Positions 8,866-22,410 of a stretch of DNA of 24,000 nt are shown in pieces; within the stretch, counting starts at the first letter, position 1, and each line of letters begins with the position of its first letter. Below the pieces are notes generated by a model. It had not been told where the DNA came from, did no database searches, and saw only the letters and a program-made list of their open reading frames with translations. This DNA is from Frankiaceae bacterium (GTDB lineage: Bacteria > Actinomycetota > Actinomycetes > BP-191), in assembly GCA_030840645.1 (NCBI GenBank), contig JAVEEC010000050.1:10846-34845 (forward strand), read 5' to 3'. A program made the translations under genes and the position numbers.

Positions 8866-10605
8866 CTAGCCCTTCGCGTTGACGGCGGCGAGCGCGTCGA
8901 CCAGGCCGTCCCCGTAGAAGCCGTTGTGCTCCTTGGTGCCGCGGCAGGTCGCCGTGTAGTCGGCGTTGCGGCCCGGGTAGGTGAACGTCGCGCTGCTCGG
9001 GCAGGCCTTCGGCGTCGCGCTGCCGCGCAGCAGCGCCGCGACCCGCGCGGGATCCATCCGCAGGGTGCCTGGATGCGCCGGGTCGGCCGTGCCGAACCTG
9101 CTCACGATCATCGCCGCCACGCCCGCCGCGTGCGGCGACGCCATCGACGTCCCGGTCAGGTAGCGGTAGTACGCGCACGTCGTGCCCTTGCAGTACTGCA
9201 CGACGTACGGCGTGCGCGGGCGGCCGTTCGGCCCGACCGAGCCGTCCGCCTTCGCCAGCGCGGCCGGCCAGGTCGACAGCGTCATGTACGACGGGTCGGG
9301 GCCCGAGCCGTCGGCGAGGTACGTGCTGCCGCCGGGCGCGGTCACGGTGATGTGGTTCAGGCCGTAGTCGGAGTAGTCCGCCTTGATGCCGTCGCGCGCC
9401 ACCGCGCTGATCTGGATGACGTGCGGCAGCTCGCTCGGCAGGACGAGGCAGGAGGCGTTGACCCGGCGCAGCCGCGCGGCGGTGTCGGGGAAGTCGGGGC
9501 TGGTCGTGTCCGTCCGCGGGGTGTCCAGGTCGAGGTGCTCGTTGCCGGCGGCGGCGACCAGCGTGACGCCCTTCGCGTACGCGTACTCCGTCGCCCGGCG
9601 CACACCCTCGATCAGGGCGCGCTGCTCGTAGCGTTCGTCGGCGGTGTCGTCGATGCCGTTCGGGCAGTTGAACAGCCACGGGTCGACGTAGTAGCTCATG
9701 TTCGCCACGTCGACGCCGATGTCCCCGGCGTACGTCAGCGCGTCGACCGTCGGCATCAGGAAGAACAGCCCCGAGTCCTGGCCCGCGCGCAGCCCGACGA
9801 GGCGGACGCCGGACGCGACGCCCGCCATGCCGAAGCCGTCGCCCGCCGCGCTCGCGACGGTGCCCGCGACGTGCGTGCCGTGGCCGTCGTCGTCCGCCGT
9901 CACCGGGTCGACGCAGGTCGGGGTCTCGCACGGGCCGTCCGCTCCCGGGTAGTCGGTGACGAAGTTCCGCGACAGGTCCTTGTCGTACGCCGCCGCCAGG
10001 TCCGGGTGCGTCCCGTCGACGCCGGTGTCGATGATCGCGACGAGGACGCCGCTCTTGCCGCCGTGCGCCTTGCGTGCCTGCGGCGCGTGGATCACGTCCA
10101 TGTCCCACTGGAGGTCGGCGAGCGGATCGGGGCCCGCGTTGCTCCGCCGGGACCCGACGCCCTGGGGTGCGTCGCGGTGTTTCTCGACCGCCGGCGGCAG
10201 GCCGACGGCACGGTTGGTGACGACGCCGTAGATCGCGGACTGCTTCCGCGCCCGGGCGACGAAGTCGCGGCCGGCCTTGACGGTCACGACGCCGACCTTG
10301 GCGTTCGCGTGGATGACCTCGCCGCCGGCCTGCGCGACGGCGACCTCGCCGGCGCCCATCGACACGCCCGCGACGTACACGACGTCGAACACCCGGTCCC
10401 GCGGCGTCGTCCCCACCGGCGTCGGCTTGGCCGAGGTGGGGGCCGGGGTCGGTGCGGTGGTCGTCGGCGCCGCGCTCGTGGGTGCGGCAGTGGTCGGCGC
10501 CGCGTGCGGCTTCGGGTCCTTTCGGTCGTGCCTGGCGACGGCCGCGCCGACGCCGGTGACGAGGACGGCCGCGGTGGCCAGGGCGACGACGCCGGAACGC
10601 TGCAT
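8866..10605 (-). CDS. Secreted/anchored S8 family serine peptidase
   Basis: ATG at 10605 gives MQRSGVVALATAAVLVTGVGAAVA, then a Pro/Thr linker and an I9-like propeptide. Triad motifs are IIDTGVDGTHPDL, DDDGHGTHVAGT and GTSMASPHAAGVAA. Confidence 0.85.
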   Translation of the reverse strand: MQRSGVVALATAAVLVTGVGAAVARHDRKDPKPHAAPTTAAPTSAAPTTTAPTPAPTSAKPTPVGTTPRDRVFDVVYVAGVSMGAGEVAVAQAGGEVIHANAKVGVVTVKAGRDFVARARKQSAIYGVVTNRAVGLPPAVEKHRDAPQGVGSRRSNAGPDPLADLQWDMDVIHAPQARKAHGGKSGVLVAIIDTGVDGTHPDLAAAYDKDLSRNFVTDYPGADGPCETPTCVDPVTADDDGHGTHVAGTVASAAGDGFGMAGVASGVRLVGLRAGQDSGLFFLMPTVDALTYAGDIGVDVANMSYYVDPWLFNCPNGIDDTADERYEQRALIEGVRRATEYAYAKGVTLVAAAGNEHLDLDTPRTDTTSPDFPDTAARLRRVNASCLVLPSELPHVIQISAVARDGIKADYSDYGLNHITVTAPGGSTYLADGSGPDPSYMTLSTWPAALAKADGSVGPNGRPRTPYVVQYCKGTTCAYYRYLTGTSMASPHAAGVAAMIVSRFGTADPAHPGTLRMDPARVAALLRGSATPKACPSSATFTYPGRNADYTATCRGTKEHNGFYGDGLVDALAAVNAKG

Positions 10606-10763
10606 CGCCGAAGCGTACGTCGCCGCTCCCACTGCCGTCCGGCCCTGCCGGTGTGCCCTGCCCGGCGTAGTCCTTTCGGAGGGTTTCGCCCGATCTCGGT
10701 GTTTCGTGCCCCGCGGGTAGGCGAGGCTCAGTTCGGGGACCCGACTCGCGAGGAGTGAACGGC

Positions 10764-10910
10764 ATGCGCCAGAAGACCGTGCGTCGCACAGCGGCGTTCG
10801 TGGCGCTGGCGGTGGTGCTGCTCACGCTCGGCGCCGCCGTGATGGGCGCGGCGCGCGCCGACGAGTGCGCGACGCCCGCCGCCCGGCTCTCGCTGCACCA
10901 GTCCTGCTGA
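10764..10910 (+). CDS. Small secreted peptide precursor (48 aa; not in the supplied ORF track)
   Basis: GAGGAG lies 8 nt upstream of the ATG. Translation is MRQKTVRRTAAFVALAVVLLTLGAAVMGAARA/DECATPAARLSLHQSC. The signal-peptide architecture (n-h-c with AxA) is clear. 45 of 48 codons end in G/C, as in real genes here. The predicted mature 16-mer has Cys at positions 3 and 16. Confidence 0.45.
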   Translation: MRQKTVRRTAAFVALAVVLLTLGAAVMGAARADECATPAARLSLHQSC

Positions 10911-10923
10911 CCGGCGTTGCCAG

Positions 10924-11601
10924 CTAGACCTTCCGCAGCACCGTCACGACCCGGCCGAGGATGGTCGCGTCGTCGCCGGGGATGGGGGCGTACGCGGGGT
11001 TGTGCGGCATCAGCCAGACGTGGCCGTCGCGGCGCTTGTAGGTCTTGACCGTCGCCTCGCCGTCGATCATCGCGGCGACGATGTCACCGTTGTCGGCGCT
11101 GGGCTGCTGGCGCACGACCACCCAGTCCGCGTCGGCGATCGCCGCGTCGATCATCGAGTCGCCGACCACCCTGAGCAGGAACAGCGTCCCCTCGCCGACC
11201 AGCTCGCGCGGCAGCGGGAACACGTCCTCGACCAGCTCCTCGGCCAGCACCGGCCCGCCGGCCGCGATCCGGCCGACGACGGGCACGTACGTGGGCGTCG
11301 GGCGGGCGTCGTTGGCGGCCGCCTCGTCCTCCACCGCGCTCGGCGCGAACACCTCGACCGCGCGGGGGCGGTTCGGGTCGCGGCGGAGGAACCCCTTCTT
11401 CTCCAGCGTCGCGAGCTGGTGGTGCACGCTGCTCGAGCTCGTCAGCCCGACCGCCTCGCCGATCTCGCGCACGCTCGGGGGGTAGCCGCGGCGCTCGACG
11501 GCGGCGCGGATCACCTCGAGCACGCGGCGCTGGCGCGGGGTCAGCCCGCTCGCGTCGGGCGGGCCGTCGGGGAAGTCGTGTACTTGCGCCTCGTCCGACA
11601 C
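10924..11601 (-). CDS. lexA: SOS repressor LexA
   Basis: wHTH region is [32 protein letters not shown], the cleavage region is RIAAGGP, the catalytic Ser is in GDSM and the Lys is in [11 protein letters not shown] start. SOS boxes lie upstream. Confidence 0.95.
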
Positions 11602-11664
11602 GTGCGCTCCCTTGGCTCGTTCCCTCGTTCCTGTCGCTCACCGTAGCGGCGCCGGGCGTCCCAT

Positions 11665-11680
11665 TCAAACATGTGTTCGA
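11665..11680. promoter_or_regulatory. SOS (LexA) box upstream of lexA
   Basis: tcaaacATGTgttcga matches the actinobacterial TCGAAC-N4-GTTCGA consensus at 11/12 specified positions. It lies 64 nt upstream of the lexA start. Confidence 0.75.
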
Positions 11681-11716
11681 TTTTTCTTGACAGCGCGCCG
11701 CGATCTGCGGCACTGT

Positions 11717-11748
11717 TCGCACAGACGTTCGATCGAACACCCGTTCGG
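11717..11748. promoter_or_regulatory. Two abutting SOS boxes upstream of the LysM gene
   Basis: tcgcacAGACgttcga (11717-11732) is immediately followed by tcgaacACCCgttcgg (11733-11748). Each matches 11/12 specified positions. They end 23 nt upstream of the ATG at 11771. Confidence 0.7.
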
Positions 11749-11770
11749 CTTGTCACACCCGGGAGGCAGC

Positions 11771-12097
11771 ATGACGGCCATGACCTACGACACGCCCCGT
11801 GCGCCCCATCCCTCCGTGCGCCTCACCCGCCGCGGCCGGACGCTGATCGTCCTCACGCTCGTCGCCCTGGTGCTGCTCGCGTTCTCACTGGGCCGCACGT
11901 CGGCGGGCGCAACGGGTTCCGGGACGCCCGTGGCGCGGCCGACCACCGTCGTTGCGCCGGGGGAGACGCTCTGGGCCATCGCCCGCCGCGTCGCGCCCGG
12001 CACCGACCCTCGGGCGACCGTTGCACGACTCACCCAGCTCAACGACCTCGGCTCGACACCCATCGTCGCCGGCCAGCGGCTGGTGCTGCCCCGGTAA
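11771..12097 (+). CDS. Membrane-anchored LysM-domain protein (SOS-regulated, ChiZ/Rv2719c-like position)
   Basis: GGGAGG is followed by ATG. TM segment is LIVLTLVALVLLAF. LysM region is VVAPGETLWAIARRVAPGTDPRATVARLTQLNDLGSTPIVAGQRLVLP. The gene is divergent from lexA, as in mycobacteria. Confidence 0.8.
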   Translation: MTAMTYDTPRAPHPSVRLTRRGRTLIVLTLVALVLLAFSLGRTSAGATGSGTPVARPTTVVAPGETLWAIARRVAPGTDPRATVARLTQLNDLGSTPIVAGQRLVLPR

Positions 12098-12149
12098 CCG
12101 CTTCCCCGCTTCCCCAAGCGCGCGCGGGCCCCGGACGCGCGCGACGCCC

Positions 12150-12175
12150 CCGGCCGTCACCACCCTGACGGCCGG
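12150..12175. terminator. Bidirectional hairpin between convergent genes
   Basis: ccggccgtca / ccaccc loop / tgacggccgg forms a perfect 10-bp stem. It sits between the LysM gene stop (12097) and the minus-strand gene stop (12186). The T-tract is weak (tt). Confidence 0.5.
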
Positions 12176-12185
12176 TTCGGCGTGC

Positions 12186-13085
12186 CTACCCGCCGACCAG
12201 TTCCGCGCGCGCCTCGCGCACGTCGATGGTGCGGGTGACGTCGGGGGCGTTCACGCCGTTGCCGGGTACGTCCAGCGGCCCGACCGGGCCGAACCCGACG
12301 TCGAACGTGTACGTGCCCGCCCACGTCGTGCGCAGCCGTACCGCCGCCGTGCCGGGTGCCGTGTAGACGTGCGCGACGCGGGTGTCGCAGCGTTCTGCCG
12401 GTGCCGTCTGGTCGTACGGCCCGCCCGGTGTCGCGGTCTCGCACGTGGCGCCGTCGCCGAACGTCCAGCCGTACCGGCTCGGCGCGATCTCGACGTCGAG
12501 CGTCGCGGGGCCGGCCGGGGTGGTGACGTTCAGCGTCGTGCGGTCCTGCGCCGGACCGTTCGCGAAGAAGAACGTGGGCAGCCGCGTCACGGCCCGGCCC
12601 TCCGGCTGGACGCCGATGCGGGTCGCCGGCGGCGCGAGGGCGGTCAGGTACCGCGCTGCATCGATGGCAAGGTCCGCGGGCGTGAGGATGCGCCGCGTTC
12701 GGGTCAGGCAGATCGTGTCGAGGTACGCGGGCCCCGGGTCGCCGGGACGTTGCAGGAACAGCCGGAACAGCGCTCCGTCCGGGCACCGTACGGCGCCGCA
12801 CTTGACCTGCGACGGCGCCTCGACGGTGTTCTGGTCGCAGTTCAGAACGAGCGTCCAGACGCAGCCGGGACATCCATGGCTGCGCGCGACCGCAGCGTTC
12901 GCGGCATCCGAGCCGGGCACGATGATCGTCCCGCGAAAGTCGTTAGGAGACTCGATGACCGACCCCGCCCCACACTGCAACGCGTTCCGCTTACACAAGT
13001 CCCCGGGCACGGGGTCCGCAACGGCGGGCCGGCCGATGCCGAGGGCGCACAGAGCCGCGAGAAGGGCTGTTGCAATCCGAGTCAC
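12186..13085 (-). CDS. Secreted Cys-rich protein with C-terminal PKD-like domain
   Basis: Signal peptide is TRIATALLAALCALGIGRPAVA/D. The N-terminal half is Cys-rich. The C-terminus has WTFGDG...VAHVYTAPGTAAVRLRTTW (PKD signature WxFGDG..HxY..G). Its GTG start overlaps the upstream stop (GTGA). Confidence 0.6.
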   Translation of the reverse strand: MTRIATALLAALCALGIGRPAVADPVPGDLCKRNALQCGAGSVIESPNDFRGTIIVPGSDAANAAVARSHGCPGCVWTLVLNCDQNTVEAPSQVKCGAVRCPDGALFRLFLQRPGDPGPAYLDTICLTRTRRILTPADLAIDAARYLTALAPPATRIGVQPEGRAVTRLPTFFFANGPAQDRTTLNVTTPAGPATLDVEIAPSRYGWTFGDGATCETATPGGPYDQTAPAERCDTRVAHVYTAPGTAAVRLRTTWAGTYTFDVGFGPVGPLDVPGNGVNAPDVTRTIDVREARAELVGG

Positions 13086-13621
13086 TTCGTGACCACATCG
13101 AGACGGTCGAGGAGCCAGGCATCCCCATGGCGACGAAAGTGCACGGAGTACCGCGCTCTGCTTTCGCCGAATGTCTCGATGATCTTGCCGTCAAGAGTCC
13201 GTTCGTGCCCAGCGGTCTGATCGGCCACGTAAGTAGCCGATCCGCCGAGTTCGCCGACCTGCTGTACCGAGACTCCGGAGACTGAGTACGAGTAGTCCAA
13301 GTAACGACCCTGGCGGGCTTCGCTCCGCAGAAGTCCGAGAACACTCGTGCAGGGGCAGTCGGGAGCGATGAGGCGGCTGAGCGCGTCCGTCGACCTCGCC
13401 GGGTGCAGAAGTGCCTCGTTCAAGGCCGAGATGTACGCGGCGATCGCCTGCTTTACCTGAGTATTTGGCGAGAGTGATGGCCGACTGGACGTGGTCGCTG
13501 ACACCGAGGTCGACATTGACGGTGGGCCGGTTGGCAGCGTGCCCCCGTGCGGGTGGGAGCAGGCAACGGCAGCCACCGTGCCCACCACGAACGCCACCCA
13601 GACGTCCCCCGTACGACGCAT
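13082..13621 (-). CDS. Hypothetical lipoprotein / secreted protein
   Basis: ATG at 13621 gives MRRTGDVWVAFVVGTVAAVAC/S (weak lipobox), then a Ser/Thr/Pro linker and a domain containing a DCPC motif. Local GC is visibly lower than in the flanks. Confidence 0.55.
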   Translation of the reverse strand: MRRTGDVWVAFVVGTVAAVACSHPHGGTLPTGPPSMSTSVSATTSSRPSLSPNTQVKQAIAAYISALNEALLHPARSTDALSRLIAPDCPCTSVLGLLRSEARQGRYLDYSYSVSGVSVQQVGELGGSATYVADQTAGHERTLDGKIIETFGESRARYSVHFRRHGDAWLLDRLDVVTK

Positions 13622-13699
13622 GTGACGAGTGTAAAGAACGCGCCAACTGGCGTGAATACGCCACCCACAACCTGTGGATAACGATGGGGGCGGACGCCG

Positions 13700-14389
13700 T
13701 CAGCCGACGTCGTACTCCGGCAGCGTCCGCGGCGCCTTCGAGGCGTCGAACGGCGCGCCCGTCGAGTGCCGGATCGTCACGCTCATCCGCGGCCCGACCG
13801 GCCGGGCGGTCTTGGGCACGCAGTGCTCCCAGTCGTGCTGGCACGCGCCGCACATCACCACGAGGTCGCCGCACCCGGGTTCGAGCACGAGCGCGATCCG
13901 CCCGCCGCCGCGCGGCCGGAGCCGGAACTTCCGCCGTGCCCCCAGCGACACCGTCGCCACGAGCGGGTCACGGTGCACCTTGCCGTTGCGGTCGGGGTGC
14001 CAGGCGACGCTGTCGCGGCCGTCGCGGTAGAGGTTCACCCAGACGCGGTCCAGGAGGACGTCGTACCGCTCCGACAGCGCCGCGCACATCGACGGCAGCG
14101 CAAGGGGTGTCCCGCGAGCGCCAGGGTCGGTCGACCAGCCCGCCGTAAGGCGGGGTTCGAGCACTGTGCCGTCGTACATGCGGCGCTCGCGCTGCTTCCA
14201 GGCGCCTCGTTCGAGCAACGAGAGGAACAGCCCGTCCGCGCCCCGCAGCCAGCCCGGGCAGTAGTCGATCCACGACGTCGCGTCGAGCTCGTGGCGGACC
14301 AGGCCGTCGAATGACACGTCGATCGCCGGCGCCGCCGCGATGTCGAGCAGCGACGGCTGGAACGCCACGTCAGGCTTCACGCTCACCAT
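13700..14389 (-). CDS. alkB: Alpha-ketoglutarate/Fe(II)-dependent dioxygenase AlkB (oxidative DNA dealkylation)
   Basis: ATG at 14389 (MVSVKPD). The 2OG-Fe(II) motifs are VAWHPDRN (HxD), HDWEHCVPK (distal His) and RMSVTIRH (RxS). The upstream part of ORF 13700..14797 is non-coding. Confidence 0.8.
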   Translation of the reverse strand: MVSVKPDVAFQPSLLDIAAAPAIDVSFDGLVRHELDATSWIDYCPGWLRGADGLFLSLLERGAWKQRERRMYDGTVLEPRLTAGWSTDPGARGTPLALPSMCAALSERYDVLLDRVWVNLYRDGRDSVAWHPDRNGKVHRDPLVATVSLGARRKFRLRPRGGGRIALVLEPGCGDLVVMCGACQHDWEHCVPKTARPVGPRMSVTIRHSTGAPFDASKAPRTLPEYDVG

Positions 14390-14471
14390 CGTAAGAACAC
14401 CCTGCGACACGTTTTCGGCCCCCGTGTAGGACGATGCGCCCGGACGACCGCGAACACCACTTGGAGCAACG

Positions 14472-14945
14472 ATGCGCTGCCCGTTCTGCCGGCACCCCGA
14501 CAGCCGGGTCGTCGACTCCCGCGAGGCGGACGAGGGCACGGCGATCCGCCGCCGCCGCGAGTGCCCGGAGTGCAACCGCCGGTTCACCACGATGGAGACC
14601 GCGAGCCTGGTCGTCGTGAAGCGCAACGGCACCAAGGAGGCGTTCAGCCGCGCCAAGGTCGTCGTTGGCGTCCGCCGCGCCTGCAAGGGCCGGCCCGTCG
14701 ACGACGACCAGCTTGCCGCACTCGCGCAGGACGTCGAGGACCACGTCCGCGGCCAGGGCGCGGCCGAGGTGACGAGCCAGGATGTCGGACTGGCCATCCT
14801 CGGGCCGCTGCGCGACCTGGACGAGGTGGCGTACCTGCGGTTCGCCAGCGTCTACCGCGGCTTCGACTCCCTCGCGGACTTCGAACGTGAGGTCAACGGG
14901 CTCAAGTCCATGCGCGCCGACCCCGAGCCCGACCCGCAGCCGTAG
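14472..14945 (+). CDS. nrdR: Transcriptional repressor NrdR
   Basis: The Zn ribbon is [17 protein letters not shown]...[14 protein letters not shown]. The ATP-cone follows ([16 protein letters not shown]...[11 protein letters not shown]). Confidence 0.95.
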
Positions 14946-15057
14946 CCAGCCGCCGGGGGCGACCCCGCTGACCTGCGCTTGCAGAATCTCCCGCCCCTCC
15001 GGCGTCGCGACACGCCCGGAACCGCTTGCGCACCCCTGGGACCAGGTGCAGACTCCA

Positions 15058-15073
15058 CCACTGCATCTAGTGG
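15058..15073. promoter_or_regulatory. Candidate NrdR box in the nrdJ leader
   Basis: ccacTGCATCTAgtgg is palindromic (ccac...gtgg) and resembles the published acaCwAtATaTwGtgt consensus in about 11/16 positions. I could not find a convincing second box at the usual ~31-bp offset. Confidence 0.35.
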
Positions 15074-15088
15074 TTACAACGGTGTCAT

Positions 15089-15142
15089 TCGTCCACATGT
15101 AGTTCCACAGGCTGTGCACAGGTTATCCGCACCTTGTGCACC
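15089..15142. promoter_or_regulatory. Cluster of five DnaA-box-like 9-mers upstream of nrdJ
   Basis: tcgtccaca (15089; 8/9 vs TTGTCCACA), agttccaca (15101; 6/9), ctgtgcaca (15112; 7/9), ttatccgca (15123; 8/9 vs TTATCCACA) and ttgtgcacc (15134; 7/9). Confidence 0.25.
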
Positions 15143-15238
15143 GACTCGTCCCCAGAAAACTGTCACACCCGGCCTGTTCCATAGGGATCAGACCGACGAC
15201 CCGGGGTGTTGCAACCTCACGTGAGCAGGGAGCACGGC

Positions 15239-18076
15239 ATGACCGAGACGGCGAACGGCGCGACGGCCAAGACCTCGAAGAAGGCGGCCGGGCTGCGCCT
15301 GCAGCGCGTGTTCACGACCGAGGGCGTGCACCCCTACGACCAGGTCCTGTGGGAACGCCGCGACGTCGTCATGACCAACTGGCGCGACGGCTCGGTCAAC
15401 TTCGAGCAGCGCGGCGTGGAGTTCCCTGACTTCTGGTCGGTCAACGCCACCAACATCGTCACGACGAAGTACTTCCGCGGCGCCGTCGGCACCGAGGCGC
15501 GCGAGTGGTCGCTCAAGCAGGTGGTCGACCGGGTCGTCGACACCTACACCCAGGCCGGCGTCGCCAACGGCTACTTCGCCACCCCCGCGGACGCCGAGAT
15601 CTTCGAGCACGAGCTCAAGCACATGCTCGTGCACCAGATCTTCAGCTTCAACAGCCCCGTCTGGTTCAACGTCGGCACCACCGCCCCGCAGCAGGTCAGC
15701 GCCTGCTTCATCCTCTCGGTCGACGACCAGATGGACTCGATCCTCAACTGGTACAAGGAGGAGGGGATCATCTTCAAGGGCGGCTCCGGCGCCGGCCTCA
15801 ACCTCTCCCGGATCCGTTCCTCGAAGGAGCTGCTCTCCTCGGGCGGCACCGCGAGCGGTCCCGTGTCGTTCATGCGCGGCGCGGACGCCTCCGCCGGCAC
15901 CATCAAGTCCGGCGGCGCCACCCGCCGCGCCGCGAAGATGGTGATCCTCGACGTCGACCACCCCGACATCGAGGAGTTCATCGAGACGAAGGCGCGCGAG
16001 GAGGACAAGATCCGCGTCCTGCGCGACGGCGGGTTCGACATGGACCTCGGCGGCCGCGACATCGTCAGCGTGCAGTACCAGAACGCCAACAACTCGGTCC
16101 GCGTCACCGACGAGTTCATGCGCGCCGTGGAGGCGGGCACCGAGTTCGGCCTCAAGGCCCGCAAGACCGGCGAGGTCATCGAGACCGTCGACGCCAAGGC
16201 GCTGTACCGCAAGATCGCGACCGCCGCGTGGGAGTGCGCCGACCCCGGCATCCAGTACGACGACACGATCAACGACTGGCATACCTGCCCGGAGACCGGC
16301 CGCATCACCGCATCGAACCCGTGCTCCGAGTACATGCACCTCGACAACTCCTCCTGCAACCTTGCCTCCCTCAACCTGATGAAGTTCCTGCGCGAGGACG
16401 GCTCGTTCGACGCCAAGACGTTCGCCAAGGTGGTCGAGTACGTCATCACCGCGATGGACATCTCGATCTGCTTCGCCGACTTCCCGACCGAGAAGATCGG
16501 CGAGACCACCCGCGCCTACCGCCAGCTCGGCATCGGCTACGCCAACCTCGGCGCCCTGCTCATGGCCAACGGCCTGCCGTACGACTCCGACTCCGGCCGC
16601 GCGATGGCCGGCGCGATCACCTCGCTCATGCAGGCGACGGCGTACAAGCGCTCCGCCGAGCTGGCCGCGATCGTCGGCCCGTACGACGGCTACGCCCGCA
16701 ACGCCGACGCCCACCAGCGCGTCATCCGCAAGCACGCCGCCGCCAACGACGGCCTTCGGCCGTTCGGCGCCGACGACGCGCGGATCCTGCACGAGGCCAC
16801 CCGCGCGTGGCAGGAGTGCCAGAAGGCCGGCGTCGCGAACGGCTACCGCAACAGCCAGGCGTCGGTCATCGCCCCGACCGGCACCATCGGCCTGATGATG
16901 GACTGCGACACCACCGGCCTCGAGCCCGACCTCGCGCTGGTCAAGAACAAGAAGCTCGTCGGCGGCGCGTCCATGAAGATCGTCAACGGCACCGTTCCGG
17001 CCGCCTTGCGCAAGCTCGGCTACGACGAGGAGATCGTCGAGGCGATCGTCGAGTACGTCGCCGAGCACGGCCACGTCGTCGACGCGCCCGGCCTGCGCCC
17101 CGAGCACTACGCGGTTTTCGACTGCGCGATGGGGGAGCGGTCCATCTCCTGGATGGGCCACATCCGGATGATGGCCGCGATCCAGCCGTTCATCTCCGGC
17201 GCGCTGTCCAAGACCGTCAACCTCCCCGAGACCGCGACCGTCGAGGACATCGAGAAGGCGTACTTCGAGGGGTGGAAGCTCGGCCTCAAGGCGATCGCGG
17301 TCTACCGCAACAACTGCAAGGTCGGCCAGCCGCTGTCCGACATCAACGACACCAAGAAGGCCGCGGCCGCCCTTGCGGCGGCCGGGATGCCGGTCGACGC
17401 TGGCGAGATGCGGCCGATCCGCAAGCGCCTGCCGAAGAAGCGCCCGTCGCAGACGGTGTCGTTCTCCGTCGGTGGTGCCGAGGGGTACATGACCGCGGGC
17501 TCGTACCCCGACGACGGCCTCGGCGAAGTGTTCATCAAGATGTCGAAGCAGGGCTCGACCCTGGCCGGCGTGATGGACGCGTTCTCCGTCGCCATCTCCA
17601 TCGGTCTGCAGTACGGCGTGCCGCTGGAGGCGTTCGTCGCGAAGTTCACGAACATGCGCTTCGACCCGGCCGGCCTGACCGACGACCCCGACGTGCGGAT
17701 GGCCCAGTCCGTGATGGACTACATCTTCCGCCGCCTCGCGCTGGACTACCTGCCCGTGGAGAAGCGGGCGGAGCTCGGCATCTTCACCGCGGAGGAGCGC
17801 GCTGCGCAGGTCGCGTCGTCGTCATACGGGTCCGCGCCCGCGGACGCGGCGGCCGAGCTCGGCGACGTCGAGGGGCTCGCGCAGTCCGTTCCGGTCGAGC
17901 CGCAGCCCGCGGCGCCGGCGACCGCACCCGCGAACCGCGGTGGCGGCTCCGGCATCGAGGTCACGGCCCAGACCGCCCAGGACGCGCCGCTATGCATGAA
18001 CTGCGGCATCAAGATGCGTCCCGCGGGCTCCTGCTACGTCTGCGAGTCCTGCGGCAGCACCAGCGGTTGCAGTTAG
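15239..18076 (+). CDS. nrdJ: Adenosylcobalamin-dependent ribonucleoside-diphosphate reductase (class II)
   Basis: AGGGAG lies 7 nt upstream of the ATG. The 945-aa product has class II RNR motifs (TNIVTTKYFRG, SACFIL, ASNPCSEY, NSSCNLASLNL, APTGTIGL) and a C-terminal CxxC...CxxC tail (CMNCGIKMRPAGSCYVCESCG). Confidence 0.95.
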   Translation: MTETANGATAKTSKKAAGLRLQRVFTTEGVHPYDQVLWERRDVVMTNWRDGSVNFEQRGVEFPDFWSVNATNIVTTKYFRGAVGTEAREWSLKQVVDRVVDTYTQAGVANGYFATPADAEIFEHELKHMLVHQIFSFNSPVWFNVGTTAPQQVSACFILSVDDQMDSILNWYKEEGIIFKGGSGAGLNLSRIRSSKELLSSGGTASGPVSFMRGADASAGTIKSGGATRRAAKMVILDVDHPDIEEFIETKAREEDKIRVLRDGGFDMDLGGRDIVSVQYQNANNSVRVTDEFMRAVEAGTEFGLKARKTGEVIETVDAKALYRKIATAAWECADPGIQYDDTINDWHTCPETGRITASNPCSEYMHLDNSSCNLASLNLMKFLREDGSFDAKTFAKVVEYVITAMDISICFADFPTEKIGETTRAYRQLGIGYANLGALLMANGLPYDSDSGRAMAGAITSLMQATAYKRSAELAAIVGPYDGYARNADAHQRVIRKHAAANDGLRPFGADDARILHEATRAWQECQKAGVANGYRNSQASVIAPTGTIGLMMDCDTTGLEPDLALVKNKKLVGGASMKIVNGTVPAALRKLGYDEEIVEAIVEYVAEHGHVVDAPGLRPEHYAVFDCAMGERSISWMGHIRMMAAIQPFISGALSKTVNLPETATVEDIEKAYFEGWKLGLKAIAVYRNNCKVGQPLSDINDTKKAAAALAAAGMPVDAGEMRPIRKRLPKKRPSQTVSFSVGGAEGYMTAGSYPDDGLGEVFIKMSKQGSTLAGVMDAFSVAISIGLQYGVPLEAFVAKFTNMRFDPAGLTDDPDVRMAQSVMDYIFRRLALDYLPVEKRAELGIFTAEERAAQVASSSYGSAPADAAAELGDVEGLAQSVPVEPQPAAPATAPANRGGGSGIEVTAQTAQDAPLCMNCGIKMRPAGSCYVCESCGSTSGCS

Positions 18077-18111
18077 CGCTACGTCGCCTAACGCGGCTTA
18101 GTTCAACGAGG

Positions 18112-18117
18112 TATAAT
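18112..18117 (+). promoter_or_regulatory. Perfect TATAAT -10 hexamer at the left edge of the low-GC island
   Basis: ggTATAATtattc lies 37 nt upstream of the GTG at 18154. No good -35 is seen at 17-bp spacing. Confidence 0.3.
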
Positions 18118-18153
18118 TATTCTCTCAGCGTCTCAAACTCGAAGCGGGGGACC

Positions 18154-18771
18154 GTGGCTGACCTGCCGTATGTGATCAACACTGGAACACTCTCAAAGTT
18201 TTTCGACAGTATCCAGACCACAGGAGTGCCTGGCAAGGTTACAATTCAGTATCTTGGCTCCATAGGCTTCAAGAGTTCCAACGATCGGTATCTACTTCCA
18301 TTCTTGAAGGCGGTCGCATTCGTCGATACCAGCGGCACGCCTATTGACAATTGGAAGAATTATCGCCACACAGGTCAATCGAAGTCGGTGATGGCGCAGG
18401 CTGTTCGTACGGGCTGGGCGAAGTTGTTTGATCTATACCCGGACGCCCACCGCAAGGACGATGAAGCAATCCGAAACTGGATGCGCAGTCACTCACCTGG
18501 CGCCTCTCCTACCACGGTCGATCGATCTCTAAAGACTTTTCGGGCCGCGTGCTCCTTCGCAGATTTCGGGGCACCTGTCGAATCGGTAACCATTTCGACG
18601 CCTGATGTTACGGCTTTGACAACAGTGCCAACGCCAGCAGCTCCCGCACGAGTTGCACCTGAGGTTGTGATCAACATCCAACTCCAGATACCTGCAACCG
18701 ACGATCCGAACGTGTACGATCGCTTCTTCGCTGCGATGCGTAAGCACCTATATAGCGAGCCTGCGGAGTAG
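18154..18771 (+). CDS. Island gene A: DUF5343-like protein with PT-rich linker and short conserved-looking C-terminal module
   Basis: GTG follows GCGGGGG. N-terminal region is ADLPYVINTGTLSKFFDSIQTTGVPGKVTIQYLGSIGFKSSNDRYLLPFLKAVAFVDTSGTPIDNWKNY. From memory of DUF5343 starts (PY...l.k.l..i...g.P.k.....L...G......LkfLglvd..g.pT) this resembles that family, but it is unverified. The linker is TPDVTALTTVPTPAAPARVAPE and the tail is VVINIQLQIPATDDPNVYDRFFAAMRKHLY. Codon usage is A/T-rich. Only the last 618 nt of ORF 15505..18771 are coding. Confidence 0.7.
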   Translation: MADLPYVINTGTLSKFFDSIQTTGVPGKVTIQYLGSIGFKSSNDRYLLPFLKAVAFVDTSGTPIDNWKNYRHTGQSKSVMAQAVRTGWAKLFDLYPDAHRKDDEAIRNWMRSHSPGASPTTVDRSLKTFRAACSFADFGAPVESVTISTPDVTALTTVPTPAAPARVAPEVVINIQLQIPATDDPNVYDRFFAAMRKHLYSEPAE

Positions 18772-19307
18772 TGGACTCACATGTGGCGCGTTCTTGGCAG
18801 ATAGTTGTAGGTCGTTTCGGGAGAGAAGCTAACTCGATTCTGAGTAAAGCTGAAACTGCCCCATCGCGTATCATTACGCTTGATGATAGCTACGCTAAAC
18901 TCGCCAAACTTTCGCTCGCCCAGGACGAACTGCTGCGGCAGGCGTTGAGGTGTGTCGAGCATCAGCTTTATCGTGCAGCACACGTCATGGCGTGGTCGGC
19001 GCTAATGGATTTTCTTGAAGAAAAGTTGGCCTCGGATGGTTTGCGCGCAGTCGCGACGGCACGCCCAAAGTGGCCGACGCAGAACATCGAGGCGCTACGT
19101 GAGCAGGTCAACGAATTCCAGTTGATCGAGGTTACGCACGTGGTGGGCCTGTGCAGCAAGAATGAGGTCAAGGCGCTCCACGGATTACTTAACAGGCGAA
19201 ATGAGTGCGCCCATCCAAGCCCGTACTTCCCAAACTTGAACGAAGCACTCGGGTACGTTACCGAGGTAATGCAACGAATCAAGCACCTTCAACCAAAGTC
19301 AGTTTGA
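18771..19307 (+). CDS. Island gene B: HEPN-superfamily protein (RNxxxH motif), putative RNase toxin/effector
   Basis: The GTG shares its G with the TAG of gene A (TAGTG). The protein looks all-helical. LLNRRNECAHPS contains R143-N-E-C-A-H148 (19197-19214), the Rx4H HEPN signature with the typical Asn after Arg. It uses rare codons, including one TTA (19185-19187). An alternative GTG lies at 18783. Confidence 0.7.
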   Translation: MDSHVARSWQIVVGRFGREANSILSKAETAPSRIITLDDSYAKLAKLSLAQDELLRQALRCVEHQLYRAAHVMAWSALMDFLEEKLASDGLRAVATARPKWPTQNIEALREQVNEFQLIEVTHVVGLCSKNEVKALHGLLNRRNECAHPSPYFPNLNEALGYVTEVMQRIKHLQPKSV

Positions 19308-19350
19308 CTGAGCCGCCAACAGGATGTGCAGCGTGTCACGCCGCAGCCTC

Positions 19351-19818
19351 TCAGAAGAGCGTCCCGGCCTCCAGGTCAAGCAGGGCCCGCTTCGCCGCCA
19401 TACCGCCGCCGAACCCGGTCAACGACCCGTCCGCGCCGATGACCCGGTGGCACGGGACGACGATCGCGATCGGGTTCCGCCCGTTCGCCAGACCGACCGC
19501 GCGCGCCGCGCCCGCGTCGCCTACCCGCCGGGCGAGCTCGCCGTAGGAGACCGTGGTGCCGTACGGGATCAGCCGCAGCTGCTCCCACACAGCGCGCTGG
19601 AACGACGTCCCCACCGGCGCTAGCGCCACGGTGAACGACCGCCGCTCACCGGCGAAGTACTCGGCGAGCTGCTCGACAGCCGAGACCAGCACCGGGTCGT
19701 CGTCGGCGCGGTCGCCGGCGGCCGGGCCGGAGCCGAACCGCAGGCCGGTCAGGGCATCGCCTGCGGCGGTCAGGTGCAACGGACCGACGGGCGTCGGGTC
19801 GAGGACGGTCCAGGTCAT
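19351..19818 (-). CDS. ogt: Methylated-DNA--protein-cysteine methyltransferase
   Basis: ATG at 19818 (MTWTVLDPTPVGPL). Motifs are YGELARRVG..AARAVGLANGRNPIAIVVPCHRVIGADGSLTGFGGG, including the PCHRV active site. Its start overlaps the upstream stop (ATGA). Confidence 0.9.
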   Translation of the reverse strand: MTWTVLDPTPVGPLHLTAAGDALTGLRFGSGPAAGDRADDDPVLVSAVEQLAEYFAGERRSFTVALAPVGTSFQRAVWEQLRLIPYGTTVSYGELARRVGDAGAARAVGLANGRNPIAIVVPCHRVIGADGSLTGFGGGMAAKRALLDLEAGTLF

Positions 19819-21257
19819 GCGTTCGCTCCCAACGAGGTCCACAGATGCATGAGCGCGTACGAGCGCCACGGCCGCCAGGCCTCCGCGAGGACGGCCGGGA
19901 CGGCCCCCGACGCCAACGCGGCCACCGCATGCCGCACGCCGAGGTCGGTCGGCAGGAACGCGTCCGGGTCGCCGAGCGCGCGCATGGCGACGTAGGAGGC
20001 GGTCCACGGTCCGATGCCCGGCAACGCCAGCAGCGATGCGGACACGGCCGCGCGGTCGACGCCGCGGTCCAGGTCGAGGGCACCTGCGGCAACGGCGCCG
20101 GCCAGCGCCACCAGCGCCCGCGCCCGGGCGCCGGGCATCGGCAGCGACTCGGCGACCGCCAGCGCGGGCGCCGACGGGAACAGGTGGGTCAACGACCCGT
20201 CCGTCACCGGCTCGCCGTACGCCAGGACGAGCCGGCCCGCCAACGTGCGCGCCCCCGCGACCGAGACCTGCTGGCCGAGCACGGCGCGGACCGCGAGCTC
20301 GAAACCGTCGACGTGACCCGGCACCCGCAGGCCCGGCCGCTTGCGGACCAGCGCGCCCACCACCAGGTCGTCGCCCAACGCGTCCAGCACGGCCAGCGGA
20401 TCGGCGTCGAGGTCGAGCAGCCGGCGGCACCGTTCGACGGCCACCGGCAGGTCGGCGAGGTCGTGCAGCCGCAGTACGCAGCGCACGTACGACGGCAACG
20501 GCGTGAGCGCGACGACGCCCGGGCCGTGGGGGAGCCGCAGCGTCCGCCGGTACGTGCCGCCGACGACCTCCTCGACGCCGGGCACGGCGCGCGCGCCGAG
20601 GAAGTCGAGCAACGCCGCCCCGTCGAACGGCTCCCGCACCGCGAGCCGCAGCTCGACGTCGCCGCCCGTCGCCACCGGCGCGCGGCTGCGACCCCGCAGG
20701 TCTGACGGCGTGACGGCGTACGTCTCCCGCATCGTCGCGTTGAACTGCCGGACGCTCGCGAACCCGGCCGCGAACGCCACGTCCGCCAACGGCATCGCTG
20801 TCGTCTCGACCAGGATCCGCGCGGTGTGCGCGCGGCGCGCGCGGGCCAGCGCGATCGGGCCGGCCCCGAGCGCGGCGACGAGGACGCGGTTGAGCTGGCG
20901 CTCGCTGTAGCCGAGCCGCGCGGCGAGGCCGGGCACGCCGGAACGCTCCACGACGCCGTCGTTGATCAGCCGCATCGCGCGGCCGGCGACGTCGGCGCGG
21001 ACGTCCCACTCCGGCGACCCGGGGGTGGTGTCGGGCCGGCACCGCTTGCAGGCCCGCAGCCCGAAGGACTGCGCCGCCGCGGCCGAGACGAAGAAGCGCA
21101 CGTTCTGCCGCCGCGGCGTGACGGCCGGGCAGCTCGGCCGGCAGTAGATGCCGGTCGTCAGCACGCCGGTGTAGAACACGCCGTCGAAGCGGCGGTCCCG
21201 GCTGAGAACCGCGCGGTAGCAGCGGTCCTGGTCCTCGATCACCTGCTCATCCTGCAC
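19815..21257 (-). CDS. Bifunctional Ada regulatory protein / DNA-3-methyladenine glycosylase II (AdaA-AlkA fusion)
   Basis: GTG at 21257 (alternative at 21242). The Ada Zn site is YCRPSCP...ACKRCRP. The AraC HTH is GYSERQLNRVLV...VAFAAGFASVRQFNATMRETY. The AlkA HhH-GPD region is LLALPGIGPWTASYVAMRALGDPDAF. The architecture and ogt coupling match the M. tuberculosis adaA-alkA/ogt operon. Confidence 0.85.
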   Translation of the reverse strand: MQDEQVIEDQDRCYRAVLSRDRRFDGVFYTGVLTTGIYCRPSCPAVTPRRQNVRFFVSAAAAQSFGLRACKRCRPDTTPGSPEWDVRADVAGRAMRLINDGVVERSGVPGLAARLGYSERQLNRVLVAALGAGPIALARARRAHTARILVETTAMPLADVAFAAGFASVRQFNATMRETYAVTPSDLRGRSRAPVATGGDVELRLAVREPFDGAALLDFLGARAVPGVEEVVGGTYRRTLRLPHGPGVVALTPLPSYVRCVLRLHDLADLPVAVERCRRLLDLDADPLAVLDALGDDLVVGALVRKRPGLRVPGHVDGFELAVRAVLGQQVSVAGARTLAGRLVLAYGEPVTDGSLTHLFPSAPALAVAESLPMPGARARALVALAGAVAAGALDLDRGVDRAAVSASLLALPGIGPWTASYVAMRALGDPDAFLPTDLGVRHAVAALASGAVPAVLAEAWRPWRSYALMHLWTSLGANA

Positions 21258-21307
21258 CCGTAACAGGCGAGCGTCTGGCGGGAATCGGACACGACCGTCC
21301 GGCCGGA

Positions 21308-22210
21308 TCAGCCTGCTGCGCGGAAGTCCTCGTACCGCTCGGCGAGCCCCGCGGCGTCGGGGTGGTTGTACCGGGACCGGGGCACGACGAGCCGGCCGCC
21401 GTCCATCTCCTGCAGGCCGTGGCGCAGCATCGGGCCGTCGACCTCGCGCAGGATGTCGGCGCGCACCTCGATGCCGAGGTCGGGGCGGACACCGACGATG
21501 TTCTGGTCGTACGCGGCGTGGTGGATCTTGCACAGCGCGAGGCCGTTCGGGACGACGGGCAGTCCCCGGGGGTGCGTGTCGCGCAGGATGTGCGCGGCGT
21601 CGAGCAGCTCCGGGTGGCGCAGCCGGCACATGGCGCAGGTGCCGTCGTACGCCCGCAGGACGAGGACGCGGAACTGCTCCTGGTGCAGCCGCGCCCGGGT
21701 CGTGCGCTCGACCCACCGGCGCCGGTCCTCGGTCAGGTGGTCCAGGTCCACCAGCAGCTGGCTCTCGTCGACGGCGACGGAGAACTCGTGGCGGGCGCGG
21801 TCCTCGGCGACGAGGTACACCGGCCAGATCGGCATGTACACGCCCGGCGCGACGCCGACGAAGTACGCCATCGGCACGCGCAGCTCCATGGCGCGGCGCA
21901 GCGCGCGGTTGTCGGCGTGGTCGGGGTCGGTGCCGCGGTACTTGTACCGGAGCAGGCCGTCCGGGCCGATGCCGTCCTCGTACGGTCGTGCCGCGCCCGG
22001 CGCCCGGAAGACGGTCGTGAACGAGAGCGCGGCGTCGAGGCCGGCAACGCGCCGGATGCCGGACTGGCCGATGACCTGGAACGTCCGGCCGTCGACCTCG
22101 AGCTTGTTCACGTCGGCCGAGCGGACGGTGCGGTCGACGCTGGTTCCGGCGAGGGCGTCCAGGCGCGCGAACAGCGTGCTGCGCAGCGCCGCGTCCCGGT
22201 CGCCGACCAT
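21308..22210 (-). CDS. SRA(YDG)-like domain + HNH nuclease (candidate modification-dependent, type IV-like restriction endonuclease)
   Basis: ATG at 22210 (MVGDRD). The N-terminal half reads GIRRVAGLDAALSFTTVF...YEDGIGPDGLLRYKYRGTDPDHADNRALRRAMELRVPMAYFVG...VYLV, following the SRA pattern (GI...a.Siv..g.Y.dD...l.Y.G.g......N.AL......PVrv). The C-terminus CAMCRLRHPELLDAAHILRD...NGLALCKIHHAAYD is an HNH motif. The upstream part of ORF 21308..22585 is non-coding. Confidence 0.65.
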   Translation of the reverse strand: MVGDRDAALRSTLFARLDALAGTSVDRTVRSADVNKLEVDGRTFQVIGQSGIRRVAGLDAALSFTTVFRAPGAARPYEDGIGPDGLLRYKYRGTDPDHADNRALRRAMELRVPMAYFVGVAPGVYMPIWPVYLVAEDRARHEFSVAVDESQLLVDLDHLTEDRRRWVERTTRARLHQEQFRVLVLRAYDGTCAMCRLRHPELLDAAHILRDTHPRGLPVVPNGLALCKIHHAAYDQNIVGVRPDLGIEVRADILREVDGPMLRHGLQEMDGGRLVVPRSRYNHPDAAGLAERYEDFRAAG

Positions 22211-22307
22211 GGCCACCGGACCGTTGTAGCAGCTGCGGGGTGTCCCGCGACGGCGCGAGCCCGGCGCGTCGCTCACGCGCTTCGCCACGAGCAGCCCCCA
22301 GAATGAA

Positions 22308-22342
22308 CGAGGCCCCTCGAGGTATGAGCTCGAGGGGCCTCG
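22308..22342 (-). terminator. Strong hairpin, candidate intrinsic terminator (minus strand)
   Basis: cgaggcccctcgag / gtatgag loop / ctcgaggggcctcg forms a perfect 14-bp GC-rich stem. On the minus strand it is followed by TTCATTCT. It lies about 350 nt downstream of the SWIM gene stop and about 100 nt upstream of the HNH start. Confidence 0.45.
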
Positions 22343-22410
22343 CCAGGTCCCGCTGCACCGGCGCCCGATCGCTCGGACACCGTGCGTCGCGGTACCAACC
22401 TCCGGTGCCT

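Follow-up and report, generated by a model that had tools for sequence, protein, structure and literature searches.

Type VII HEPN-MNT (HepT-MntA) modules are two-gene operons with the partner gene first, in which a small all-alpha HEPN toxin carrying an Rx4-6H motif is accompanied by a minimal nucleotidyltransferase (MNT). HEPN ribonucleases (RNases) are usually dimeric, pairing two Rx4-6H motifs, and HEPN effectors are common in abortive-infection (Abi) systems; Abi HEPN families were reportedly treated by Anantharaman et al. in 2013. Single-protein HEPN defence, of which HEC-08 is an example, combines an Rx4-6H effector with a variable N-terminal domain, and defence by HEC-08, validated by Payne et al., needs the motif histidine (bioRxiv 10.1101/2024.01.29.577857). 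The same authors predicted 145 phage defence candidates, the PDC systems, on the basis of their embedding in BREX, DISARM or type I restriction-modification (R-M) loci; one of these, PDC-M34, is a two-gene cassette (FAM_01148>>FAM_01657) that was seen 97 times (bioRxiv 10.1101/2024.01.29.577857). Sedentary chromosomal integron cassettes carry toxin-antitoxin or phage-defence genes as well (bioRxiv 10.1101/2024.07.02.601719; PMC12614218). The locus compared with these systems here is a pair of genes, A and B, carried by an island of low guanine-plus-cytosine (GC) content between nrdJ and ogt (18077-19350) in a 24,000-nt stretch of DNA from a Frankiaceae bacterium (contig JAVEEC010000050.1; the whole stretch is called the window). 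A-B is a candidate two-gene HEPN conflict module and integron cargo with an uncharacterised partner domain, unusually attC-less in an actinobacterium, and its best reading is a toxin-antitoxin or abortive-infection type module with a predicted HEPN RNase as effector. The reading as a whole, which we hold with somewhat more confidence than doubt, is that A-B is a horizontally acquired, self-promoted operon of a HEPN effector and an A regulator that is an integron cassette elsewhere and lacks attC here.

Gene B (18771..19307, + strand; 178 aa) belongs to Pfam AF_1680 (PF27235), a label precomputed on the identical protein P0001 and on the listed homologues; B itself gave no match in library scans of NCBIfam, PADLOC and a Pfam copy without the AF_1680 model. 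The source annotation places the start at GTG 18783, which yields 174 aa. Homologues of B number 1140, and in an alignment of 45 diverse ones the mean column identity was 56%. Within this alignment the residues R143, N144, E145, C146, A147 and H148 (R143-N-E-C-A-H148, then P; codons at 19197..19214, + strand) were invariant in 45/45 sequences. This Rx4H candidate catalytic motif fits the HEPN Rx4-6H pattern, in which the R is often followed by a polar residue (here N144), and its R and H are kept in most of the fusion proteins described below. The AlphaFold model of B is all-alpha, with a predicted local distance difference test (pLDDT) score of 89.9, and its top Foldseek matches in the PDB are all HEPN proteins: 2hsb (AF_0298), the Csm6 HEPN domain, Sulfolobus and Thermus HEPN proteins, and HepT toxins (6m6w, 7ae8 and 5yep among the best). 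One fusion relative also showed a weak match to HEPN_RiboL-PSP (2.5e-4). The motif thus places B with the HEPN superfamily and the modelled fold is suggestive of the same; such a protein would probably be a metal-independent RNase serving as effector or toxin.

Gene A (18154..18771, + strand; 205 aa, GTG start) encodes a DUF5343 protein, matching Pfam PF17278 with E = 1.4e-37 and 129.5 bits (cut-off 27) over positions 1-137 of the 140-position profile. As in PDC-M34, the cassette has two genes, and A matches PDC-M34A (PDLC04589) of PADLOC over its full length (E = 8.4e-42, profile 5-207/208). Residues 1-135 of the protein form a conserved N-terminal domain, followed by a disordered linker of hypervariable sequence (~140-175) and, at the C-terminus, a conserved strand-plus-helix motif. 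The last, at about residues 170-199 (18661..18750, + strand), has the consensus VNINIQLQxPATxDxxxYDxFFAAMKKHL and is conserved family-wide, with N174, Y188 and F192 invariant in the alignment of A. The AlphaFold model (pLDDT 88) has no structural neighbour in the PDB or in the BFVD viral structure library, and a sequence search of the PDB with A and B returned nothing significant. In the Pfam scan DUF5343 was the sole family found and no nucleotidyltransferase family was matched; A-B therefore differs from HEPN-MNT modules in its partner, and neutralisation by AMPylation is not expected. It differs from them further in that natural partner-HEPN fusions exist and in that B falls in the separate sequence family AF_1680.

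The two genes appear to act as one system. Of ~85 loci sampled from unrelated genomes and metagenomes, nearly all have A directly 5′ of B and co-oriented with it, the two genes being separated by -11 to +19 nt; two loci had no detected A, and in a few A was truncated. In the window the GTG start of B overlaps the TAG stop of A as TAGTG, and A-B is translationally coupled. Adjacent, co-oriented small genes with overlapping stop and start and the partner first are also the layout of type II toxin-antitoxin systems. A profile search of 1.84 billion representative proteins gave 977 relatives of B. Natural fusions with DUF5343 at the N-terminus and AF_1680 at the C-terminus accounted for 8 of 10 longer relatives in a Pfam scan; a family-profile check of 15 longer relatives gave 11 fusions and one truncated copy (P0336). 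These fusions imply a physical association of A and B. All of them lack the C-terminal motif of A, and one class also lacks approximately the first 45 residues of B. Since these segments are dispensable once the two parts are covalently joined, they are likely to form the non-covalent interface of the two-gene form, with the C-terminal motif of A probably docking onto B. The fusions resemble HEC-08 in combining an Rx4-6H effector with another N-terminal domain, whereas A-B, unlike HEC-08 and the Abi HEPN proteins, belongs to a different sequence family and is split into two genes with a proposed docking motif. AF_1680 has other fusion partners as well, DUF7669 in P0305 and an N-terminal region of 220 aa without family assignment in P0387, and so behaves as a modular effector. 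In P0384 a partial AF_1680 copy stands behind an N-terminus resembling a twin-arginine translocation (TAT) signal.

A search of unrelated taxa, phages and plasmids, as called for by the initial annotation, found the pair in unrelated phyla, but no homologue of B in 50,697 phage records or in IMG/VR, and on plasmids only distant relatives of B (~27% identity). One of the latter is on the Ochrobactrum plasmid pLM19O1 (L084, 4042-5408), where an open reading frame (ORF) of 204 aa lies ahead of, and overlaps, the one for a B-like protein of 250 aa (27% identity). Neither protein has a Pfam family, the B-like protein has only a weak, sub-threshold PADLOC match to PD-T7-3 (E = 0.0012), and the neighbours are DUF4238, IS66 and VapBC genes; this pair may be a remote variant of the A-B two-gene layout.

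The island differs sharply from its surroundings in composition. Its GC content is 0.535, compared with a mean of 0.73 in all other windows of the same size (standard deviation 0.03, minimum 0.66; z = -6.6). In 300-nt windows, GC was 0.52-0.57 across ~18050-19350 and 0.64-0.79 on either side. In 60-nt steps it fell from 0.68 (18017-18076) to 0.48 (18077-18136) on the left and rose from 0.50 (19277-19336) to 0.72 (19337-19396) on the right, which sets the edges at the nrdJ stop (18076) and roughly between the stop of gene B (19307) and that of ogt (19351). GC at third codon positions was 0.57 in A and 0.60 in B, against 0.97 in nrdJ, 0.92 in ogt and 0.92-0.99 in host genes generally. Codons ending in A or T made up 43% of gene A and 40% of gene B, compared with 2.7-7.1% in five host genes. 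The initial annotation had described this GC drop from the nrdJ stop to the ogt stop from hand counts of 42/60, 29/60 and 27/60, which a recount reproduced exactly, and its further observations of two genes only, of codons rare for the host and of a TATAAT hexamer at 18112-18117 were borne out; both genes are on the + strand. Its statement that no integrase, transposase, tRNA or convincing repeats adjoin the island was likewise upheld. The genes called within ±10 kb include no integrase or transposase, no convincing direct or inverted repeats flank the island, and the sole tRNA called by ARAGORN (22288-22358) lies 3 kb away and was not confirmed by Rfam at the gathering threshold. The island therefore lacks the integrase or transposase, tRNA target and flanking direct repeats of a classical genomic island. 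Upstream of A is a leader (18096..18153, + strand) with the TATAAT hexamer as a -10 box and a purine-rich ribosome-binding site, GGGGGA (18146-18151); the hexamer was not flagged by a sigma-70 consensus scan because it has no -35 hexamer. A -10-like box is present in the leaders of 17/55 loci, compared with 7.1±2.4 in shuffled sequences and 2/48 in a control region, indicating that the cassette often has its own promoter. A structured leader RNA was considered and rejected, as no notable RNA structure was found (z = 0.24). Taken together, these observations support a foreign origin of the island DNA as a minimal, self-promoted two-gene cassette.

In relatives the same pair is integron cargo. 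The flanks of family loci showed GTTRRRY 5′ of A and the complementary RYYYAAC just past the stop of B, and five attC sites fold canonically, with an R″/R′ stem, a bulge and an L″/L′ stem, and with compensatory changes at 10/25 pairs. A strict regular-expression finder was dropped after it missed most sites owing to their degenerate R boxes; covariance models (R1 and R2) built from these sites were used in its place, together with a model-free test for inverted repeats. The models found nine attC sites of ~160 nt in L120, at least six in L089, four each in L093 and L098, two each in L131 and L157, and one each in L145 and L164. Perfect inverted repeats of 9-13 nt starting with GTT(A/G)G bracket the pair in 6/55 loci, adding L085 and L136; one arm is 35-72 nt upstream of A, the other 0-36 nt past the end of B. 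By the two approaches together, ~10/55 non-redundant loci are integron-borne, which is a lower bound given how narrow the model is and how short many of the contigs are. The module, widely distributed and putatively selfish or defensive, is a bona fide integron gene cassette in many environmental bacteria. In the cassette array of L089 (8543-11228; also L090), attC sites part A-B from genes for HicA/HicB, TumE and HVO_A0114, with insertion sequence (IS) elements further on; the HicAB and TumE genes, flanked by consecutive attC sites, thus appear to be separate cassettes. In L093 (670-3480) the best scores of the four attC sites are on the other strand from A-B, which makes the pair look inverted relative to the array. 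Toxin-antitoxin cassettes that bring their own promoters have been described in such an arrangement.

The window copy stands apart from these. Unlike integron cassettes, it lacks both attC and a GTTRRRY boundary, neither IntI nor a cassette array is present among the genes called within ±10 kb, and it lies in a phylum reported to be without complete integrons, with one In0 and a few attC clusters that have no integron-integrase with them (CALINs) (PMC9024848). With filters off, the best match of the attC models in the window was at 18085-18109 on the - strand (10.9 bits, E 0.067), with 46/67 model positions deleted. The mini-palindrome GCCTAAC...GTTCAAC at this position was rejected as a vestigial attC, since it scores 10.9 bits, consists of R-box ends only and is mutated in one of the two other genomes with the same arrangement (L174, below). 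The spacer after B (19308..19350) gave no attC-model match, and no inverted repeats of at least 8 nt between the leader and the 3′ flank were found in the window, L001 or L172. The leader has a length that matches the 35-72 nt between boundary and A start in the integron-borne copies. IntI is able to insert cassettes at genomic sites with only a 5′-GWT-3′ consensus, and attC hairpins are easily deleted by replication slippage, a proposed path to cassette domestication (Loot et al., bioRxiv 10.1101/2022.09.11.507474). The window copy resembles the products of such attG insertion, the single attC sites lacking integron-integrases (SALINs), in being a single cassette-sized unit between host genes that is expressed from a promoter. 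It differs in that a SALIN is defined by a detectable attC and that no IntI source is known in the host lineage, while the 5′-GWT-3′ target is too short to be verified at the window copy. By analogy, genomic insertion by IntI followed by loss of attC would be a plausible route to the present state. The initial annotation had held that the insertion mechanism is not visible; this remains so for the window copy, but relatives carry the same pair as an attC-bounded cassette.

Two further copies without attC were seen at unrelated places. In L172 (6001-7172) the pair lies between carA and carB in a pyrimidine operon, with B ending 3 nt before the carB start; its GC content is 0.39, compared with 0.66 in the flanks and genome, and neither attC nor a mobility gene was found there. 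A second actinobacterial copy, in Nocardioides anomalus CP049257 (L002, 9800-11900), is at an unrelated locus without attC, in a low-GC island of ~2 kb that also holds an XRE-family helix-turn-helix gene.

The history of the nrdJ|ogt junction was examined by searching genome contigs with the C-terminal half of NrdJ, which gave the 80 nearest reference loci; the reference genomes closest to the window are metagenome-assembled ones from Frankiaceae and Mycobacteriales. The order lexA-LysM-nrdR-nrdJ is kept across Actinomycetota and breaks downstream of nrdJ, and A, B, ogt and ada occur in none of the 80 loci within 6 kb of nrdJ. The empty nrdJ|ogt junction that the initial annotation had hoped to find in the closest genomes is absent (0/80 loci with ogt downstream of nrdJ): the adjacency is clade-specific, and hence no empty junction can be defined. 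The arrangement nrdJ|A-B|ogt recurs in two other genomes, L001 (on a 1.24-Mb contig) and L174 (on a 1,966-bp contig), and for both proteins the three junction alleles are mutual nearest relatives.

The two comparisons gave different pictures of the cassette. Against L001, amino acid identity was 75% for A and 73% for B, compared with 76% for Ogt, 81% for Ada, 76% for SNF2, 65% for SWIM and 94% for NrdJ. Nonsynonymous divergence (dN) was 0.19-0.22 in the cassette and 0.185 in ogt, the synonymous divergence (dS) of the cassette being saturated; third-position identity was 0.40 in the cassette, near saturation (chance 0.26), and 0.65-0.83 in host genes. The cassette is thus as diverged from L001 as the host genes are, which suggests that the junction has been occupied for a long time. 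Against L174, the cassette (18096-19307) differed at 49/1212 positions (4.0%) and the flanks at 126/758 (16.6%; Fisher p = 5.6e-21). The dS values were 0.08-0.14 in the cassette and 0.49 in ogt. In non-coding sequence, 1/58 nt of the leader was mismatched (TATAAT in the window, TAGAAT in L174), against 9/63 nt of host sequence. This contrast suggests that the window allele was moved or replaced recently relative to host divergence. The inner/outer divergence ratio was 0.4-0.8 for host genes and ~0.1 for the cassette, and ratios so discordant are incompatible with a single history behind the two comparisons. From the L001 comparison, simple vertical co-inheritance had seemed to fit; after the L174 comparison it was rejected as the whole story. 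These sequences would most economically be explained by an old insertion at the junction, with the cassette alone later replaced or exchanged between the window and L174 lineages; alternatively, the site may have been targeted more than once by cassettes from a pool confined to the clade. The claim of the initial annotation that the cassette was recently acquired fits the allele, with its 4.0% divergence from L174, but not the junction.

The mechanism we propose for A-B remains a conditional one. B, a predicted HEPN RNase, would act as effector or toxin, and A would be tethered to it by its C-terminal strand-plus-helix segment, likely on the N-terminal helices of B. The N-terminal domain of A may then serve as an antitoxin-like inhibitor, sensor or regulator that restrains the RNase. 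Phage infection, the loss of A or a similar trigger would release the RNase, and cleavage of cellular or phage RNA would lead to growth arrest. In the Frankiaceae-like clade, A-B would have occupied the nrdJ|ogt junction before the three sampled lineages split, and the cassette would later have been swapped between lineages as a discrete unit. The defence or toxin cargo that the initial annotation suspected from composition is in keeping with the invariant Rx4H motif of the HEPN-like B and with the PDC-M34A match of A, function being predicted from these.

Among other explanations, we think it rather unlikely, while giving it more weight than those that follow, that A-B is a pure addiction module that serves self-maintenance only, for example by stabilising integron arrays, and has no anti-phage function. 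The attC arrays beside HicAB and TumE toxin-antitoxin cassettes, the own promoter, the overlapping partner-first layout, the inverted pair of L093 and the solitary occurrence among housekeeping genes would all suit such a module. The natural A-B fusions, however, misfit a labile-antitoxin mechanism, relatives of A are embedded in R-M, BREX or DISARM loci, and HEPN effectors are a frequent component of abortive infection; moreover, addiction and defence are not mutually exclusive. The reading of the initial annotation, one recent event that brought a defence or toxin cassette into this genome by a mechanism not visible in the sequence, seems unlikely to us. It would account for the unameliorated composition, for the low cassette divergence from L174 relative to the flanks and for the 80 nearest reference genomes in which neither cassette nor ogt follows nrdJ, but not for an L001 junction allele as diverged as the host genes, nor for a clade of their own formed by the three alleles, which points to long occupancy or repeated targeting. 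We regard as very improbable, and as already largely refuted, that A and B are native, vertically inherited genes whose low GC content is under selection (for rare-codon or xenogeneic-silencer control) and that they have a role with the DNA-damage neighbours lexA, alkB, nrdRJ, ogt and ada. Conservation of the junction in three genomes, divergence from L001 similar to that of host genes and the setting in a DNA-repair cluster are what such a view would predict. Against it, the cassette/flank divergence ratio differs six- to ten-fold between the L001 and L174 comparisons, and the pair, missing at all 80 nearest reference loci, turns up in unrelated phyla at loci unrelated to this one and within integron arrays. 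Nor does cassette GC track host GC, at 0.32-0.61 across the ~85 loci with flanks of 0.29-0.76.

Several observations weigh against our preferred reading of A-B as an acquired HEPN cassette of integron type. The covariance models found no attC in the window, L003, L001, L174, L172, L173 or L002, and this, with Actinobacteria being essentially without integrons, leaves integron-mediated arrival unproven. The L174 sequence is a short metagenome-assembly contig of 1,966 bp that could be chimeric, and the high-identity tract has no sharp right edge, since ~90% identity continues through the conserved 3′ end of ogt to ~19456. The structural matches of B to HEPN proteins are individually weak (best E 0.17; 2hsb with probability 1.0 and template-modelling scores of 0.48/0.64), and no curated HEPN Pfam model exceeded its threshold for B. 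The link to PDC-M34 is partial: unlike that system, the window copy lies outside any BREX, DISARM or type I R-M locus, and neither B nor three of its homologues (P0119, P0095 and P0065) matched PDC-M34B at E <= 1. With A in the PDC-M34A family, this suggests that the two cassettes are related and that the partner of A is a different one or has diverged far. A classical labile antitoxin would not usually be found in fusion proteins, several genomes hold the pair amid housekeeping genes rather than in defence islands, and the literature searched contained no mention of DUF5343, AF_1680, PF27235 or PDC-M34.

In A-B two domains of unknown function are joined in one system: a predicted HEPN RNase and a partner of unknown fold, with a proposed docking motif defined by its absence from the fusions. 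The system is a common integron-cassette cargo in environmental bacteria, and the window would offer a concrete case of an integron-type cassette without attC in Actinobacteria that is exchanged between species as a discrete unit. If upheld, this would bear on the way integron cargo leaves its integron and comes to be fixed in a chromosome, and would add an uncharacterised HEPN module to the candidate defence and toxin-antitoxin systems. A bolder proposal, which at present we consider a long shot, is that DUF5343 and AF_1680 form a new HEPN immunity or addiction family whose ~1.2-kb unit also moves, and replaces its own copies, without attC between core genes, even in a phylum that has no integrons. 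The recurrent precise embedding of the pair, after nrdJ here and between carA and carB in L172, was counted in its support. If true, cassettes would be mobilised, or alleles exchanged, without need of attC or of an integrase close by, through gene conversion within the cassette from circulating copies, for example, or an unrecognised targeting mechanism.

The flanks of the island are host genes. To the left, nrdJ (15206..18076, + strand) encodes a B12-dependent ribonucleotide reductase with the Pfam domains Ribonuc_red_2_N, Ribonuc_red_lgC and TSCPD. To the right, ogt (19351..19818, - strand) encodes a methylated-DNA-protein-cysteine methyltransferase (Methyltransf_1N, DNA_binding_1), 83% identical in amino acids to that of L174. 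Between the nrdJ stop and the leader is a host-like intergenic stub (18077..18095, + strand) with 3 mismatches in 19 nt relative to L174, a host-like rate; it holds GCCTAAC, which fits the RYYYAAC inverse-core consensus and is probably a chance match, L174 having GCCTAAT there. The 43-nt spacer from the gene B stop to the convergent ogt stop (19308..19350) is host-like as well, with 6 differences in 44 alignment columns relative to L174. In L001 the corresponding spacer (10538-11034) is GC-rich, 497 nt long and contains a strong hairpin (CGAGGCCCCGCGAGG...CTCGCGGGGCCTCG), whereas that of the window and L174 is only 43-44 nt.

The wider surroundings, at ~11000-21300 and also in L003, form a DNA-damage and deoxynucleotide-supply cluster in the order lexA, alkB, nrdR, nrdJ, [A-B], ogt, ada/alkA. 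A second variable spot follows between ada and the SWIM/SNF2 pair (21308-22358, - strand), with an HNH_2 gene (21308-22210) and the ARAGORN call mentioned above, a tRNA-Met; L001 has a TfoX_N gene there instead, without a tRNA. Distant from the island, at 556-654 on the + strand, Rfam identified a c-di-GMP-II-GAG riboswitch aptamer (59.4 bits, gathering score 40, E = 1e-9).

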